From: a virus
Taxonomy: Duplodnaviria; Heunggongvirae; Uroviricota; Caudoviricetes
Length of the DNA stretch: 42,021 nucleotides
IMG/VR virus record: IMGVR_UViG_2939147180_000007
Direction: 5' to 3' (one strand)
Below the pieces are notes generated by a model. The model saw only the letters and a list, made by a program, of their open reading frames with translations, was not told the origin of the DNA and ran no database searches. How positions within the stretch are numbered: the stretch's first letter is position 1; every line of letters begins with the position of its first letter. The translations under genes were made by a program, and so were the position numbers. Shown piece after piece: positions 29,922-35,646 of the stretch.

Positions 29922-30980
29922 TCATGCTTTCCACTTCAGGACACCCGAATTTCTCGCGTGCATTAAAAAACGAATCAGCAACAACAGCTGGCTGCCGTGT
30001 TTTTCTTCAAAATCTTTTACCCCGGCGTGCAGTTCGTTATGACATTTACGGCACAGCGGAATAACAAACAAATCATCAGCCTTTGTTCCCATACCTCCCA
30101 GGCCATGACCAATGATGTGATGCGGATCATCTGCCTGATTACCGCACGTCATGCATTTCTGCGTTTTTACCCAGCGCGTGTATACAGGCATCTCTTCCCG
30201 TTGTGGTTTCTGGCGCTGGAGATACTGAACCGGAGACTCCGGATCAACGGCGATGCTTACTAACGTCTTTTCCTGGAGTGGGGGCTGTTGCTGGTGGACG
30301 TGAAGTGGCAGCGCAATATTTTTTGTGCGCTGCTTCAGTATGCTGGTGGCAGTCTGTTCTCCCGGTACGATGTCACTCTCACGGTATACGGAGCGGATTT
30401 TTTCCACCGGTAATCCCAGTGAACGACACAATACAGACTCCGGAAGCGCATCAGCCACCTGATTGCAGACCGCCCACCAGGATAATTCGGCCAGCGATAA
30501 CTCCCTCTCCTGCGTACCGCTGATTGCGTGACGGATGACGTCAATCATCCATGCTGACAAGTTTTGATGAGCAAGTTGCCCGAGTGATTCTGATGTCTGG
30601 TCCCGCAACTGGTTGTCACAGTGCCAGCACAACACCATCGCGCCGGTACCGTAACGGTGAATGACGGTTTCACTGTGATGATAGTCACCATGAGGCCACT
30701 GGCAGGATTTGACATGACGCAACAGCCAGTCAGACAGTGCCCCAGCGCCGCCAGCAGCACGAATCACCCGATCATCGCTGAAAAATGGCAGTAATGATTT
30801 ATCCTCCGCCAGCGGCTGGCGAACGGCAGGGACGACTCCGGACGGCAGACCGCGCATGCTTTTCGGTTCAGGCTCCACCAGCACTCGAGGGTTATGAAAT
30901 ACTTGCATGGATTCACGGCCCGGCCTAAGGACCACCAGCCCGAGTTCCGGTACCAGAACAGGTCGAAGTAATATCCGCAC
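29922..30980 (-). CDS. DUF968 / HNH-like nuclease protein (YdfU-like); N-terminal start uncertain
   Basis: 352-aa track ORF; C-terminal CMTCGNQADDPHHIIGHGLGGMGTKADDLFVIPLCRKCHNELH is HNH-like; Qin synteny quuQ-ydfU. Confidence 0.7.
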   Translation of the reverse strand: MRILLRPVLVPELGLVVLRPGRESMQVFHNPRVLVEPEPKSMRGLPSGVVPAVRQPLAEDKSLLPFFSDDRVIRAAGGAGALSDWLLRHVKSCQWPHGDYHHSETVIHRYGTGAMVLCWHCDNQLRDQTSESLGQLAHQNLSAWMIDVIRHAISGTQERELSLAELSWWAVCNQVADALPESVLCRSLGLPVEKIRSVYRESDIVPGEQTATSILKQRTKNIALPLHVHQQQPPLQEKTLVSIAVDPESPVQYLQRQKPQREEMPVYTRWVKTQKCMTCGNQADDPHHIIGHGLGGMGTKADDLFVIPLCRKCHNELHAGVKDFEEKHGSQLLLLIRFLMHARNSGVLKWKA

Positions 30981-30981
30981 G

Positions 30982-31260
30982 TTACCTCCAGATCCGTTGC
31001 TGGTATGTGCGGGATGAACGCGGTGGGCGTTCGGAGTAAGGGAGTCTGACTGAGATTATCCAGTGACGGTAGTCGAGGCTAAGAGCTTTCTTAACCTCGT
31101 ATCCGCGCCTGCGGTAACACTGAATTATCCATTCCGCCTGCTCTTCAGTGCATGGAGGATGCTGGAACCAGTCTGATTTGAATGCGTGAAAACGCCGTCC
31201 GCACCTACTGGCAAAGACGGCAGAATCATTAGAATTGTGTAATTTGGTATCGTGCGCCAT
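30982..31260 (-). CDS. hypothetical protein (Rem-position ORF)
   Basis: track ORF 30982..31389; start at internal Met MAHDTKLHN because the upstream extension contains the hok terminator. Confidence 0.45.
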   Translation of the reverse strand: MAHDTKLHNSNDSAVFASRCGRRFHAFKSDWFQHPPCTEEQAEWIIQCYRRRGYEVKKALSLDYRHWIISVRLPYSERPPRSSRTYQQRIWR

Positions 31261-31333
31261 CGGTTGTCTCTGCTGGCGCAGCAGGTGCCAGTTGTTCAGG
31301 CTGGCGTGCGAATTGTAAACCAGAATGCCAGGA

Positions 31334-31358
31334 AAAAACAAAACCCGCCGAAGCGGGT
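31334..31358 (-). terminator. intrinsic terminator of hok mRNA
   Basis: hairpin ACCCGCTTCGGCGGGT followed by a U-run on the minus strand downstream of hok stop. Confidence 0.6.
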
Positions 31359-31427
31359 TACGTGCGGGTGCGTTGAGGATGCCTGACACATCAGAGGTGG
31401 CGAGGGATTTCTCCCCCGCCAGGTCTC

Positions 31428-31583
31428 TTACTCCTCAGGTTCGTAAGCTGTGAAGACAGCGACCTCCGTCTGGCCGGTTCGGATTCGTACCTCGCAGAGG
31501 TCTTTCCTCGTTACCAGTGCCGTCACAATGACGGTTAAACAGATGACGATCAGGGCGATTAACATCGCCTTTTGCTGCTTCAT
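31428..31583 (-). CDS. hok: Hok/Gef family type I toxin
   Basis: 51 aa MKQQKAMLIALIVICLTVIVTALVTRKDLCEVRIRTGQTEVAVFTAYEPEE, near-identical to HokD/RelF from memory; in-frame upstream extension to 31640 occupies the mok position. Confidence 0.88.
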   Translation of the reverse strand: MKQQKAMLIALIVICLTVIVTALVTRKDLCEVRIRTGQTEVAVFTAYEPEE

Positions 31584-31842
31584 AGCCTGCTTCTCCTTGC
31601 CTTTCGGCACGTAAGAGGCTAACCTAGATTTGCCGTTCATAGATTGAGCCTCAGATTAATGTTAAGCGTCTTGCAGGACGCGTAATGTTAACTGGGGCTT
31701 TTCTCTATCTGCCTTTTGGTGTTCATGCCTGAGACAGATAGCCTCAAGCACCCGCAGTCATTCTACTTAACTAAGATTTCCCCGCAAACCGTTTTTGTCC
31801 GGCACAGTAAATATCCAACTAAACCAATGGCGTTCGCTGTAT

Positions 31843-32022
31843 TTACCGCCAGTATTCAATGCACATGACCGCCATGAACACCCCTAAAAAAAGGGCATTT
31901 ATATATCCAAATATTAATATCAAAACATCAACTTTTTCCATATACCTTGCTGTGAAGATGATGGGCATACATGATACGAACAACCAGAACGCAACAAACA
32001 AAAACTGCAATGCGTTTTTCAT
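31843..32022 (-). CDS. small hydrophobic two-TM membrane protein in AT-rich islet
   Basis: 59 aa MKNALQFLFVAFWLFVSCMPIIFTARYMEKVDVLILIFGYINALFLGVFMAVMCIEYWR; strong SD AGGAGG 4-5 nt upstream; track ORF 31843..32061. Confidence 0.5.
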   Translation of the reverse strand: MKNALQFLFVAFWLFVSCMPIIFTARYMEKVDVLILIFGYINALFLGVFMAVMCIEYWR

Positions 32023-32193
32023 TATTCCTCCTACAATCAATGTGCAATTACATTTAAACACACCTCAATTTGGCCGAACATATAAATATCTAAACCAGAA
32101 AAAATCACTTACATAGCGTTACAAACTCTTTAGTCTAAATATTCATCGTAAAACATTCCCCATACTTATCAGCCCGTTCTGCGCCAGGTAGCT

Positions 32194-32509
32194 CATTGCC
32201 TTATCTGGGAATCTGTAATCAGGTTTCCGGATGCTGGTGGATTTTCGCGTTTTAGTTGTTCATAAAAGTGCACAGCTTTAACCAGTTCTTCTGATGTAAC
32301 CGGGACTGGCGGGGCAGTGAATAAGGCCTGAATTTCATAGTTCGGCCTGTCGTTACAATCCTCTTTTTTCGGTACATATTTCCAGTCACCAGACCACTAC
32401 TTCTCCTGAAAGTCCGTAACGCCTTTTTTTTCACGTAGCGATATCGCCATGCCACTGTTTTTGCTTGCCCCGCCGTTTCATGCCCTTCCTGATAATTAAC
32501 CTCGCTCAT
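32194..32509 (-). pseudogene. frameshift-interrupted ORF at poly-A runs (possible pseudogene)
   Basis: ATG at 32509 overlaps upstream stop (ATGA); downstream protein-like frame (...PNYEIQALFTAPPVPVTSEELVKAVHFYEQLKRENPP...) is shifted by -1 after an A6 run and has no start codon. Confidence 0.3.
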
Positions 32510-32682
32510 TCATCGCCCCACTCATCACAATATGCTTCGACCGGAGTTTTTCCTGCTTCATAATCATCACGCCATGCTTCAGCATCAGCAGCACTGCCAC
32601 CACGTAACTCTGCATAGTCCATTAACAGTTCATGCCATTCTTCAAAACTGACGTTGTATTTAGTTGAACCAAAATCAGCCAT
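32506..32682 (-). CDS. small highly acidic protein (58 aa)
   Basis: MADFGSTKYNVSFEEWHELLMDYAELRGGSAADAEAWRDDYEAGKTPVEAYCDEWGDE; net charge about -12; below track length cut-off; start overlaps stop of upstream acidic ORF. Confidence 0.45.
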   Translation of the reverse strand: MADFGSTKYNVSFEEWHELLMDYAELRGGSAADAEAWRDDYEAGKTPVEAYCDEWGDE

Positions 32683-32857
32683 TTTGTTCTTCCTCTTCGT
32701 CTTTTATTTCGTGATATGAGTAATTGCAGTAGTTAAAGAAAATATCTTTTGCTTCGTCATGTATTTCATCAGGCGTCGCATCATCATCCACTTCGAATTC
32801 ATCCTCGAAATCTCCACCGGCTATTCCCGTTTCAATAATTATTTTAAACTTTCGCAT
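32675..32857 (-). CDS. small highly acidic protein (60 aa)
   Basis: MRKFKIIIETGIAGGDFEDEFEVDDDATPDEIHDEAKDIFFNYCNYSYHEIKDEEEEQNG; SD AGGAGG upstream separated from the ATG by a hairpin. Confidence 0.5.
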   Translation of the reverse strand: MRKFKIIIETGIAGGDFEDEFEVDDDATPDEIHDEAKDIFFNYCNYSYHEIKDEEEEQNG

Positions 32858-32950
32858 TTAACTACCGCCCTTTCGGGCGGCCTCCTGATGTTCTGAGGGT
32901 GCAGAAATCCCTCCGGTTAAGGATTAAATTTTTAACAGAGCTAAATTTAA

Positions 32951-33307
32951 TTATTCAGTTCTGGATTTTGTCGCCCTGCGTATCCGCGCTTTCGCGTTAC
33001 GCTCAATCTGAATTAGCTTTTCTATATTTTTTCGCCTTTCCCGCTCCTCCTGACGCAAGAGCCTTACATCATCTGCCAGTCTGATTTCTCTTTTCGCCAC
33101 AGAGAGCATCCAGTCAAATGGCTCCACAACTGCACCGCAGATTTTACAGCGGACCTGACGCTCTTTTTCGTCAACCCGGACAGAGGCGTGATGACAATAT
33201 GGTCTTTCCGATGGCTCATAAAGAAAATTAACCTGATTACGAGGGTCATCCTCTTTTACCGGAAATAAAACGATATTGCTTAACTCATCCTCTGGTTTTA
33301 TTTCCAT
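32951..33307 (-). CDS. hypothetical protein with possible zinc-binding motif and C-terminal coiled coil
   Basis: track ORF 32951..33364; preferred start MEIKPEDEL with SD AGGAGAGGAG; alternative GTG start at 33364. Confidence 0.5.
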   Translation of the reverse strand: MEIKPEDELSNIVLFPVKEDDPRNQVNFLYEPSERPYCHHASVRVDEKERQVRCKICGAVVEPFDWMLSVAKREIRLADDVRLLRQEERERRKNIEKLIQIERNAKARIRRATKSRTE

Positions 33308-33364
33308 GCTCCTCTCCTTTGATGCGAATGCCAGCGGTAATTGAAGCCTGATAGCTAATTTCAC

Positions 33365-33787
33365 TTACAGTACCGCCTCCTGAAAATTACCCTGATAGAA
33401 AGCCAGTACACGCTGCATAGCTTCACTCTTCCGGCACTCGCGACAGATTATGTTTAGGCGACTGTCGTAGCGACGTATTTCTCCGTCAGGTAACGACCAG
33501 ATAAGGTCCGGATCAACCACAACCGGTTTCTTCAGCTTTGCCCTCGATAATTTTTTGCGGGCATTTTGCCAGTCTTTACGAGCCTGTTCAGACGGGAATA
33601 ACCCGTAGCCAGAATTGTATACATCGCCACTGGCAACCAGCTCTCTGGCCAGAACGCTCATCAGATATCTTGTTGCCCCAGTTTTAGCTTCCAGTTGTCG
33701 TAACGTCTCGCGCCCACTCTGGCGTACGAGTTCAAGAACCTGTCCTTTAATTTTTTCCCGCTCTTCTTGTGTAAAAACTTTTGCCAC
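33365..33787 (-). CDS. hypothetical protein adjacent to replication initiator
   Basis: 140-aa ORF, GTG start with SD GGAGG; downstream of the O-like gene. Confidence 0.55.
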   Translation of the reverse strand: MAKVFTQEEREKIKGQVLELVRQSGRETLRQLEAKTGATRYLMSVLARELVASGDVYNSGYGLFPSEQARKDWQNARKKLSRAKLKKPVVVDPDLIWSLPDGEIRRYDSRLNIICRECRKSEAMQRVLAFYQGNFQEAVL

Positions 33788-33827
33788 AAGCCCTCCTGAA
33801 AATTACCTCATGACCAGAAATTAACAC

Positions 33828-34904
33828 TTACCCCCTGAAGCCCGGCGGAATTTCGTTATCCGGTTCAGAAATATGATTCACACAACGCTGGTTGTTCGTG
33901 CCGCTTACCGGGAGCAGCCAGGGGTTTTCAAAATTCCGGTCCGGTCCAAAAAACGTCGTCGCTCGCTGAACAAATTCCGTTCCCGTTTTCCCGGTAGCCG
34001 CAAGGTATCTTGCGTAACGCCTCACGCCATCCAGCATGGCCTCTGGTGGCACCCCCTCACGTAATCTGGCTTTCCAGGCACTGAAAGCGGATTTCTTCGG
34101 GTTTGCCCCGGCACGCAACGGGTATTCCCGCCAGACCTGTTCGAACACATCAGGATAATCCACTCGTCCCACAGGCTGCCCGGTGTTTTCCGGGACTACC
34201 CGATCGGCTTCCCGCTGAATGGCGGAATCGGCTTCAGGCTGCTGAAGTTGGTGTGATTGCTCCTGCCTTGCGGTCATCACCTGCTGCACAGCGCCCGAAT
34301 CGGCTTTCAGCGCATACGCTGAATCGGCTTCCGGTGTCGTGCCTGCGGGCTGGCCAGGAGTGACGGTCTGAACATCCCCTGCCTGGTTCGTGGCGTTTTT
34401 TACGCCATGGACCATAGTGTTTTGATCTTCTTGATCTGTATCTTTATCTGTATCTTTATCTGTCGTGACTCGTCGTGACATGTGCGTGACATTTCGTGAC
34501 TCGCCGTGACAATCGCCATTTTGTTCCCGCTTTCTTTCCCTCTCTCGCTGCGCCCTCTTGCGCTCTGCAGGAGATTTTGCGGTTTGCGAAATATTGCCGT
34601 TGTCCTCTTTAAGCACCTGGCGTTTTTCCCATCCAGTGATTAAATCACCATCAAGTACCCGCCCCTGCATCGTCTGCAAAATTGAATCAATCACCTCTTC
34701 TGTCACGTCGAGCGCACTTGCCAAATCTTCTGTCGTGACATCAATGTGACCTCGCGTGACATTTCGTGACGCGCTCACCAAGAGGTGGATATACACTGCC
34801 ATCACTGTTGCAATTGGCTGCCCTGACACCCTGGCAATTGTTCGCCACTTAGGGTCATTTGGCATGTCATGCCATAATCTGAGCCAGGCGTTAGCCATAC
34901 TCAC
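33828..34904 (-). CDS. replication initiation protein (O-like; iterons inside the gene)
   Basis: 358-aa ORF containing two clusters of CGTGAC direct repeats at helical-turn spacing, as for lambda O/ori. Confidence 0.65.
   Translation of the reverse strand: MSMANAWLRLWHDMPNDPKWRTIARVSGQPIATVMAVYIHLLVSASRNVTRGHIDVTTEDLASALDVTEEVIDSILQTMQGRVLDGDLITGWEKRQVLKEDNGNISQTAKSPAERKRAQRERERKREQNGDCHGESRNVTHMSRRVTTDKDTDKDTDQEDQNTMVHGVKNATNQAGDVQTVTPGQPAGTTPEADSAYALKADSGAVQQVMTARQEQSHQLQQPEADSAIQREADRVVPENTGQPVGRVDYPDVFEQVWREYPLRAGANPKKSAFSAWKARLREGVPPEAMLDGVRRYARYLAATGKTGTEFVQRATTFFGPDRNFENPWLLPVSGTNNQRCVNHISEPDNEIPPGFRG
34427..34462. repeat. 12-bp tandem repeat (x3) next to iterons
   Basis: CTTGATCTGTAT / CTTTATCTGTAT / CTTTATCTGTCG; encodes DKDTDKDTD in the replication protein. 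Confidence 0.6.
34464..34510. repeat. iteron cluster A (5 x CGTGAC at 10-11 bp spacing), candidate ori
   Basis: TGTCGTGACTCGTCGTGACATGTGCGTGACATTTCGTGACTCGCCGTGAC. Confidence 0.65.
34754..34790. repeat. iteron cluster B (4 x (C)GTGAC at 10-11 bp spacing)
   Basis: GTCGTGACATCAATGTGACCTCGCGTGACATTTCGTGAC. Confidence 0.55.
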
Positions 34905-34969
34905 CTCTTTTGATACCGAATCTTTTTACTCACAAATTGCCGGAAGTGATCCGGTATGAATATTGCGAG

Positions 34970-35395
34970 TCAATGCACAGCCACAATATTTCCTGCAGGG
35001 CCACCACGATTCATCTGGTTGAAACCAGCGATCGCCACTGCGACAAAATCATCAGCGTCTCTCACCAGTCGTTCCCGCGTCTCCACTAGTTCCCGAAAAT
35101 AGGCTGAGCTATGACTGCGCATTCGGGCCACCAGCAGAGGTGGCATTGCTTTTTCGATAGCTGGTAACAACGCCTGAATTTTTTTAACCGCATCAGGGGT
35201 GTCTTTCTCCACCCAGCGGAAAATTTTCTGAGTATTGCGAGCCAGGGCTTCCGGATGGCTGTCGTCATACAGTTCCGGGAACGTCATTCCCAGCTCGAAA
35301 TACGCTTTGGTAATTTTCGCAGCCGGTACTTTTTCGCCGTCCGGATGCGCCCAGGCATTCATCGCCATGCGGATGTGTTCATGCTTGATTTTCAT
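34970..35395 (-). CDS. YdaT-like protein (cII position)
   Basis: 141-aa ORF directly downstream of the Cro-like gene; length and position as Rac ydaT. Confidence 0.6.
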   Translation of the reverse strand: MKIKHEHIRMAMNAWAHPDGEKVPAAKITKAYFELGMTFPELYDDSHPEALARNTQKIFRWVEKDTPDAVKKIQALLPAIEKAMPPLLVARMRSHSSAYFRELVETRERLVRDADDFVAVAIAGFNQMNRGGPAGNIVAVH

Positions 35396-35646
35396 GAATC
35401 AACTCCCATCAGCTTTTTCGTAGTAGTTTTATTCCTGCCAATAGTTAAAATTGCATCGGCAGAAAATAATCCGTTTGATGCAAGAGCGATTTTTTCAGCG
35501 TAATTTGTTTCGCCGGTATATTCTGTGCGAGGCAATTTTCCGTTATCCATCCATTTATAGATTGCTCTTTGGCTGACACCACAAACGTCGGCCACAACAG
35601 CAACGCGAACAGTTTTGATTACATCTTCAAGTGTTTTCTGGTTCAT
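35392..35646 (-). CDS. Cro-like HTH regulator (YdaS/DicC-like)
   Basis: track ORF 35392..35718; start at MNQKTLEDVIK with SD GAGGG; HTH ADVCGVSQRAIYKWM; divergent from repressor. Confidence 0.7.
   Translation of the reverse strand: MNQKTLEDVIKTVRVAVVADVCGVSQRAIYKWMDNGKLPRTEYTGETNYAEKIALASNGLFSADAILTIGRNKTTTKKLMGVDS

Follow-up and report, generated by a model that had tools for sequence, protein, structure and literature searches.

Two small, strongly acidic proteins are encoded by overlapping open reading frames (ORFs), here called ORF1 and ORF2, on the minus strand of a 42,021-nt stretch of viral DNA (IMG/VR record IMGVR_UViG_2939147180_000007, Caudoviricetes; hereafter the window), which is a Rac/Qin-type lambdoid prophage of Escherichia coli. 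Taken as a whole, the explanation that we regard as reasonably probable is that ORF1 and ORF2 are unrelated, independently mobile accessory genes, the products of which may bind basic surfaces. They are followed by a third frame, ORF3, so that the locus consists of two conserved, uncharacterised acidic proteins, already annotated as hypothetical proteins, beside a decayed gene in an ordinary lambdoid layout. A preliminary description made from the sequence of the window had pointed to an overlapping pair of small, strongly acidic minus-strand ORFs of 60 and 58 amino acids in a phage early region, and the coordinates and overlaps have been confirmed:

32675..32857, minus strand: ORF1, 60 amino acids, with 20 aspartate or glutamate (D/E) residues (33%), 5 lysine or arginine (K/R) residues and a net charge of -15; identical to RefSeq WP_001224662.1.
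32506..32682, minus strand: ORF2, 58 amino acids, with 16 D/E residues (28%), 4 K/R residues and a net charge of -12; identical to RefSeq WP_000753060.1.

The net charge of -12 initially given for ORF2 is correct, while the D/E content of about 35% given for both proteins and the charge of -16 given for ORF1 were slightly too high.

ORF1 is a typical member of the DUF7167 family. It matches Pfam PF23768 (DUF7167) with a score of 55.1 bits against a cut-off of 24.4, residues 2-53 being aligned to profile positions 1-60 of 60, and it matches phrog_1997 (E 9e-31) over profile positions 1-57 of 57. The positions conserved in DUF7167 (R2, I8, E9, T10, F21-V23, D25, A27, T28, I32, A36, F40 and C44) are kept, and members of the family resemble ORF1 in size (about 56-60 amino acids) and acidity (median net charge -12), with nothing found that sets it apart. 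An AlphaFold2 model built from 48 sequences, with a mean pLDDT (predicted local distance difference test) score of 90.0, gives a β-hairpin with strands at 2-8 and 17-23, then a helix at 29-43 and, last, an acidic tail that is disordered. A tblastn search with ORF1 matched 38 phage records, in which homologues of 52-60 amino acids are present in temperate phages of Klebsiella, a Klebsiella phage with a T7-like replication module, Enterococcus phages of the Herelleviridae, a Pseudomonas phage and phiWec188-type coliphages; P22-like prophages also carry the gene, and a profile search added members from Citrobacter and Yersinia. Fold matches in BFVD include uncharacterised proteins from phAPEC8, from Lactococcus phage 949 and from a Streptomyces phage. 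In P22-like prophages the gene order is Arf-ERF-SSB-Dam-DUF7167-theta-Xis-Int, which places DUF7167 between Dam and a homologue of DNA polymerase III theta (HOT), and elsewhere DUF7167 lies directly upstream of a PD-(D/E)XK exonuclease.

ORF2 belongs to a different family, phrog_519 (E 4.5e-23). The phrog_519 profile has 143 positions and residues 1-58 of ORF2 cover only positions 76-137; the longer entries that we inspected are upstream extensions of the gene call. ORF2 has no Pfam match at E<=1 and no NCBIfam match, and a Pfam scan of all 33 ORF2-family members gave no family in common. A HMMER search of 1.84 billion cluster representatives found 65 at E<=1e-3, nearly all of them stand-alone proteins of 48-99 amino acids. 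Their alignment has the motif FEEW...L...A...GGS..D..AWR.DY.AG.TP.eA..DEW, in which W37 is invariant and F13, W16, Y41, G44 and P47 are conserved, and the median net charge of the family is -10. The AlphaFold2 model of ORF2 (mean pLDDT 87.6) is a three-helix bundle (13-27, 34-42 and 47-55). Homologues are found in about 200 phage records, mainly of the Ackermannviridae, for example CBA120 orf183; the Ackermannviridae proteins are 55-60% identical to ORF2, and an Enterobacter prophage protein (P0096) is 79% identical. More distant homologues (38% identity) on environmental contigs (L105-L107) lie directly upstream of one or two proteins with a SocA_Panacea domain, a domain known from antitoxins.

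Both ORF1 and ORF2 are genuine genes. The stop codon of ORF1 and the start codon of ORF2 lie in an 8-nt overlap (ATGGCTGA), and ORF2 in turn overlaps ORF3 as ATGA; overlapping stop and start codons are the usual packing in nin- and ea-type regions. Of the changes relative to an intact allele of 94% identity (locus L090), 11 in ORF1 are synonymous and 2 non-synonymous, and all 7 in ORF2 are synonymous; at the level of sequence comparison, these counts indicate purifying selection on both. Copies of about 90% identity occur in decayed Qin-like prophages ridden with insertion sequences, where they have internal stops, an ATG-to-GTG change and a relaxed pN/pS of 0.11-0.22. Since the copies in decayed prophages are relaxed, selection acts while the phage is functional and not for the benefit of the lysogen.

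Directly in front of ORF1 lies the following block:

32858..32886, minus strand: translation-initiation block of ORF1, made up of the Shine-Dalgarno (SD) sequence AGGAGG (32886-32881), a hairpin (32881-32864), AGTTAA and the ATG.

The AGGAGG is the sole SD sequence of ORF1 and lies 23 nt from the ATG, and RNA folding places between them a GC-rich hairpin of 7 bp, closed by a GAAA tetraloop. Formation of this hairpin would shorten the effective distance from SD to ATG to about 6 nt, as in a "split ribosome-binding site" like those of T4 genes 38 and 25, and the hairpin may take part in initiation of ORF1. Six diverged copies all have the block unchanged, which leaves no covariation by which the hairpin could be judged. 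Homology of phage ArgO145 to the window starts exactly at this block. About 40 nt upstream of the hairpins, GCTCTGTTAAAAA (32926-32938, minus strand) resembles the boxA consensus (GCTCTTTAACAA), and this sequence and the GAAA-loop hairpin might make up a nut-like site. In an Rfam scan of positions 30500-35500 no RNA family was assigned to the intergenic hairpin region.

Judged by their distribution, ORF1 and ORF2 look like independent cassettes and not like an obligate pair. In the E. coli lineage, 77 of the 78 IMG/VR loci with ORF1 have an essentially full-length ORF2 (56-58 amino acids) next to it with the same overlap. All 19 of the loci sampled from other lineages, each covering about 3-4 kb to the left and to the right of the gene, hold only one of the two families: DUF7167 is alone in Klebsiella, Enterococcus (Herelleviridae), Pseudomonas and P22-like prophage contexts, and homologues of ORF2 are alone in Ackermannviridae (CBA120 orf183), in environmental contigs and in Enterobacter prophages, in the last of which the gene comes after an Ead_Ea22 gene. 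Among the loci sampled, the two families are together only in E. coli lambdoid prophages and phages. In the Shiga toxin (Stx) phage ArgO145 the E. coli module, with its 5′ initiation block, is found in a leftward ea-type region as gp15 and gp14, which shows cassette-like mobility.

ORF3 is a pseudogene of a separate 171-amino-acid gene of phrog_660. A three-way DNA alignment against the intact 171-amino-acid allele, which begins at the same ATG as the frame in the window, revealed four lesions:

32143..32509, minus strand: ORF3, a multiply damaged pseudogene of the 171-amino-acid phrog_660 protein, with the original stop TGA at 32145-32143.
32431-32424, minus strand: lesion 1, A8 in place of A6 in the intact allele, an insertion of 2 nt equivalent to a -1 shift.
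32399-32397, minus strand: lesion 2, an in-frame TAG.
32244/32243, minus strand: lesion 3, a 90-nt in-frame deletion between AATCC(G/A)CCAG repeats.
About 32224/32223, minus strand: lesion 4, a 61-nt frameshifting deletion.

The preliminary description had recognised that a third frame, overlapping ORF2 as ATGA, is broken by a -1 shift at poly-A, and lesion 1 is this shift; of the A-runs that it had placed at about 32365-32432, the run at 32431-32424 has indeed slipped, whereas the second, at 32369-32364, has a substitution and no indel. When repaired, the translation of ORF3 matches phrog_660 with E 9e-27, and the intact allele does so with E 4e-75; an NCBIfam scan with ORF3 gave no match. 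Three kinds of alleles are present at this position in IMG/VR (loci L004-L083): an intact one of 171 amino acids, an intermediate one of 104 amino acids with both deletions, and broken ones with A7 or A8. The homopolymer is A6 in the intact allele, A7 in a class of 40-amino-acid truncations and A8 in the window, and therefore has slipped more than once in the population.

Could the frameshift be a sequencing error, and the three frames a single gene? This outcome had been allowed for at the outset and is not what was found. An 851-nt stretch of the locus is 100% identical in 25 of 25 complete E. coli chromosomes among the matches listed, 627 records have at least 99% identity to it, and it matches 2657 of 5426 complete E. 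coli genomes. Such identity across independent complete genomes means that the frameshift is real and no read error, and the NCBI Prokaryotic Genome Annotation Pipeline (PGAP) likewise calls ORF3 a pseudogene ("frameshifted; internal stop") in an identical genome, where ORF1 is a "DUF7167 family protein" and ORF2 a hypothetical protein. A single merged gene is rejected by the stand-alone homologues of ORF1 and ORF2 (about 56-60 amino acids) in distant phages and by the intact 171-amino-acid allele of ORF3. Programmed frameshifting or phase variation of ORF3 is also rejected: a frame corrected at the A8 run meets the TAG at 32399-32397, and the two deletions remain downstream. As correction of the slip fails to restore ORF3, neither a sequencing artefact nor programmed frameshifting accounts for it. 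In other phages the position of ORF3 is occupied by Ead/Ea22-like genes of 211 or 239 amino acids, and the 211-amino-acid gene of ArgO145 matches PF13935 (Ead_Ea22) with E 3.5e-39. The intact allele of ORF3 has no PF13935 match; it has the N-terminus MSEIN.Q... in common with lambda Ea22, with 10 of the first 23 residues identical, a likeness limited to those 23 residues.

The three frames belong to a rightward early operon, where they take up a nin-like position, with the replication genes on one side and hokD/Q on the other. In NZ_AP019189, as annotated by PGAP, the order is exonuclease, DicB and LexA-family repressor, and then Cro/CI-type regulator, YdaT, replication protein, DUF977, a hypothetical protein, the DUF7167 family protein, a hypothetical protein, the pseudogene, hokD, DUF968, RusA, antiterminator, tRNA and lysis genes. 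Neither a sigma-70-like promoter nor an intrinsic terminator was found on the minus strand between 31400 and 33900, which fits read-through from the early promoter. The upstream neighbour in the same operon is:

32951..33307, minus strand: a protein with a zinc ribbon and a coiled coil, phrog_1621.

In related prophages (L089-L091) the slot directly upstream of ORF1 is taken by a class I S-adenosylmethionine (SAM)-dependent methyltransferase of 118 or 157 amino acids, the flanking genes being unchanged.

A possible outline of how ORF1 and ORF2 act is as follows. The two genes would be transcribed within a long rightward early operon in the order Cro/YdaT, replication initiator, DUF977/Ren-like protein, zinc-ribbon protein, ORF1, ORF2, ORF3 pseudogene, hokD, DUF968, RusA and Q, and the overlap of stop and start codons would let reinitiating ribosomes translate ORF2 after ORF1. 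Each product is, as modelled, one compact, strongly acidic domain, too small for an enzyme. During lytic growth each would bind, one to one, a host or phage protein at a basic and probably nucleic acid-binding surface, and both proteins would then be dispensable factors that modulate the host or counter its defences. That they act as small stoichiometric binders of basic surfaces through which other proteins contact DNA is, as we infer, the most likely mode of action, and we put it forward tentatively; it is consistent with the conserved acidity, the position in the early operon, the occurrence in both virulent and temperate phages, and the neighbouring genes for recombination, nucleases and DNA methylation. 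The best functional analogy is TifA (Orf65) of Enterococcus phage phi47, a small acidic phage protein, formerly hypothetical, which inhibits type IV restriction enzymes by binding to them directly and does not mimic B-DNA (PMC11322646). Its predicted fold is SH3-like and so differs from the β-β-α fold predicted for ORF1 and the helical one predicted for ORF2. TifA was also considered as a homologue of the Enterococcus DUF7167 proteins and rejected, as its predicted fold is different and phi47 is not among the 38 records matched by tblastn with ORF1, a judgement that rests on folds and records and not on direct comparison of the sequences. A more far-reaching version, to which we would give a lower chance than to binding as such, is that DUF7167 and the three-helix protein of phrog_519 each found a family of broad-range phage inhibitors (anti-restriction, anti-nuclease or other counter-defence) that has gone unrecognised and would act by electrostatic occlusion of a DNA-binding surface on a conserved host protein; both families span temperate and virulent phages, and DUF7167 spans Gram-negative and Gram-positive hosts.

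Several points weigh against this explanation. The timing of expression and the translational coupling of ORF1 and ORF2 are read from gene arrangement, and binding of a protein from acidity and context. No homology-based or experimental evidence bears on function: Pfam, PHROGs and NCBIfam give unknown function or nothing, a PDB sequence search had no match for either protein, and the BFVD matches of ORF1 are all uncharacterised phage proteins. A literature search returned no paper mentioning DUF7167, WP_001224662.1 or WP_000753060.1, and a search of work on lambdoid anti-defence and nin regions returned nothing relevant; the supplements of one accessory-gene screen (PMC12373910) contain neither the ORF1 nor the ORF2 peptide string. 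In some lineages ORF1 and ORF2 decay along with the prophage, which means that a lysogen gains no strong benefit from them. The neighbourhoods would fit equally well with a part in the metabolism of phage DNA or, as for the lambda exo-xis genes, in the lysis-lysogeny decision, and nothing that we found shows either protein blocking host defences, the role that the preliminary description had put forward as a hypothesis.

The alternative that survives best, which we nevertheless regard as unlikely, is that ORF1 and ORF2 are developmental modulators like the exo-xis proteins of lambda and Stx phages (orf60a, orf61, orf63, Ea22 and Ea8.5), tuning the lysis-lysogeny decision or host physiology and not countering defence. 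The exo-xis genes orf60a/DUF1317, orf63/DUF1382, orf61, ea8.5 and ea22 have a similar size and early expression and share a niche in Stx and Enterobacter prophages; ArgO145 and the Enterobacter prophages carry the ORF1 and ORF2 genes among Ead/Ea22-like genes upstream of xis/int. The exo-xis genes are small, early and dispensable and affect lysogenisation (PMC3824215; PMC7093339). No homology to ORF1 or ORF2 is detectable, however: BLASTP against lambda orf60a, orf61, orf63, ea8.5 and ea22 gave no significant match, the best E being 0.049 for a 9-residue match of ORF2 to ea22 and otherwise at least 0.28. Moreover, homologues of ORF1 and ORF2 are found in the strictly virulent Ackermannviridae and Herelleviridae, which make no lysogeny decision.

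Somewhat more doubtful is the idea that ORF1, ORF2 or both mimic DNA in the manner of Ocr, ArdA, Gam and gp5.9; they would fill the groove in which a host nuclease (a type I restriction enzyme, BREX or RecBCD) binds DNA, and so shield the phage DNA. The mimics T7 Ocr, ArdA, lambda Gam and T7 gp5.9 are, like ORF1 and ORF2, small, very acidic proteins of an early region, some of them next to nuclease or recombination genes; the strong acidity is conserved in both of our families, the genes lie in an early operon, and DUF7167 is often beside genes for recombination, exonuclease or DNA methyltransferase, which resembles the place of gam by exo and bet in lambda and that of gene 5.9 directly ahead of the gene 6 exonuclease in T7. 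Both proteins also have a high density of surface carboxylates (33% and 28% D/E) as in DNA mimics, a property that is necessary for such mimics and not specific to them. The known mimics are elongated, DNA-like dimers, whereas ORF1 and ORF2 are compact single domains in their monomer models. No sequence or profile similarity to Ocr or ArdA was found, Pfam at E<=1 giving only DUF7167 for ORF1. Structure prediction and comparison with Ocr, ArdA and anti-CRISPR folds, which had been suggested at the outset as a way to recognise such proteins, yielded confident models and no fold similarity to any solved DNA mimic or anti-CRISPR. The compactness of the predicted domains and the lack of a fold match make mimicry in the style of Ocr and ArdA less likely, and we do not think that ORF1 and ORF2 are B-DNA-shaped mimics of this type, nor that they form a two-part system.

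Such a system, a cognate two-component module (toxin-antitoxin-like or inhibitor-chaperone) with the overlap fixing the expression ratio, we consider improbable. The succession of ORF2 after ORF1 in 77 of 78 IMG/VR loci speaks for it, as do the occurrence of the pair, at a coverage of at least 80%, in 1749 of 5426 complete E. coli genomes and its joint movement between nin-type and ea-type regions. Yet the E. coli loci are close relatives, so the co-occurrence can be ascribed to linkage by descent, and all of the loci sampled beyond the E. coli lineage hold just one family. In addition, some E. coli variants of ORF2 (P0146 and P0084) have another upstream gene, and both proteins are acidic, unlike typical interacting pairs. 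Finally, that the frames are non-coding and open by chance, or pieces of one larger gene split by error, is extremely improbable and already refuted: the ORFs are very short, gene callers disagree on their starts and some database entries are extended at the N-terminus, but the strong synonymous excess, the significant hidden Markov model (HMM) family matches, the confident folds, the stand-alone homologues of the same length in distant phages and the in-frame TAA immediately 5′ of the ORF1 ATG all stand against it. The reading as unrelated accessory genes for acidic, possibly surface-binding proteins is the one that we retain.

The region around the three frames has further features. Just downstream is a complete hok/sok type I toxin-antitoxin locus (31428-31753, minus strand) with the hokD ORF present; its sok RNA, with 112 bits against a gathering score of 59, is the only pass in the Rfam scan. 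Between hokD and the next ORF there is a weak full-length match (31338-31419, minus strand; 27 bits, below the gathering score of 50; E 0.006) to isrK, an Hfq-binding small RNA of Salmonella prophages. A 59-amino-acid ORF (31843-32022, minus strand), MKNALQFLFVAFWLFVSCMPIIF...IEYWR, is preceded by a strong SD sequence, taggaggaataATG, and its product contains two hydrophobic segments; it has no PGAP annotation in the identical genome and no PHROG match, and from its sequence it may be a small membrane protein. The remaining window has large minus-strand ORFs in the positions and with the sizes expected for lysis, terminase, head and tail genes, as judged by size only.

The two proteins are routine prophage content: they are identical to RefSeq entries that about one in three complete E. 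coli genomes carries. What emerges is two independent, well-folded and conserved acidic mini-proteins with confident models, both of which belong to families with a wide phage host range, and they are reasonable and cheap candidates for screens of anti-defence or host-takeover functions. If either of them does inhibit a defence system, it would represent a new family of small-protein inhibitors in common E. coli prophages, in some Stx phages and in virulent phages of the type used in therapy (Ackermannviridae and Herelleviridae).
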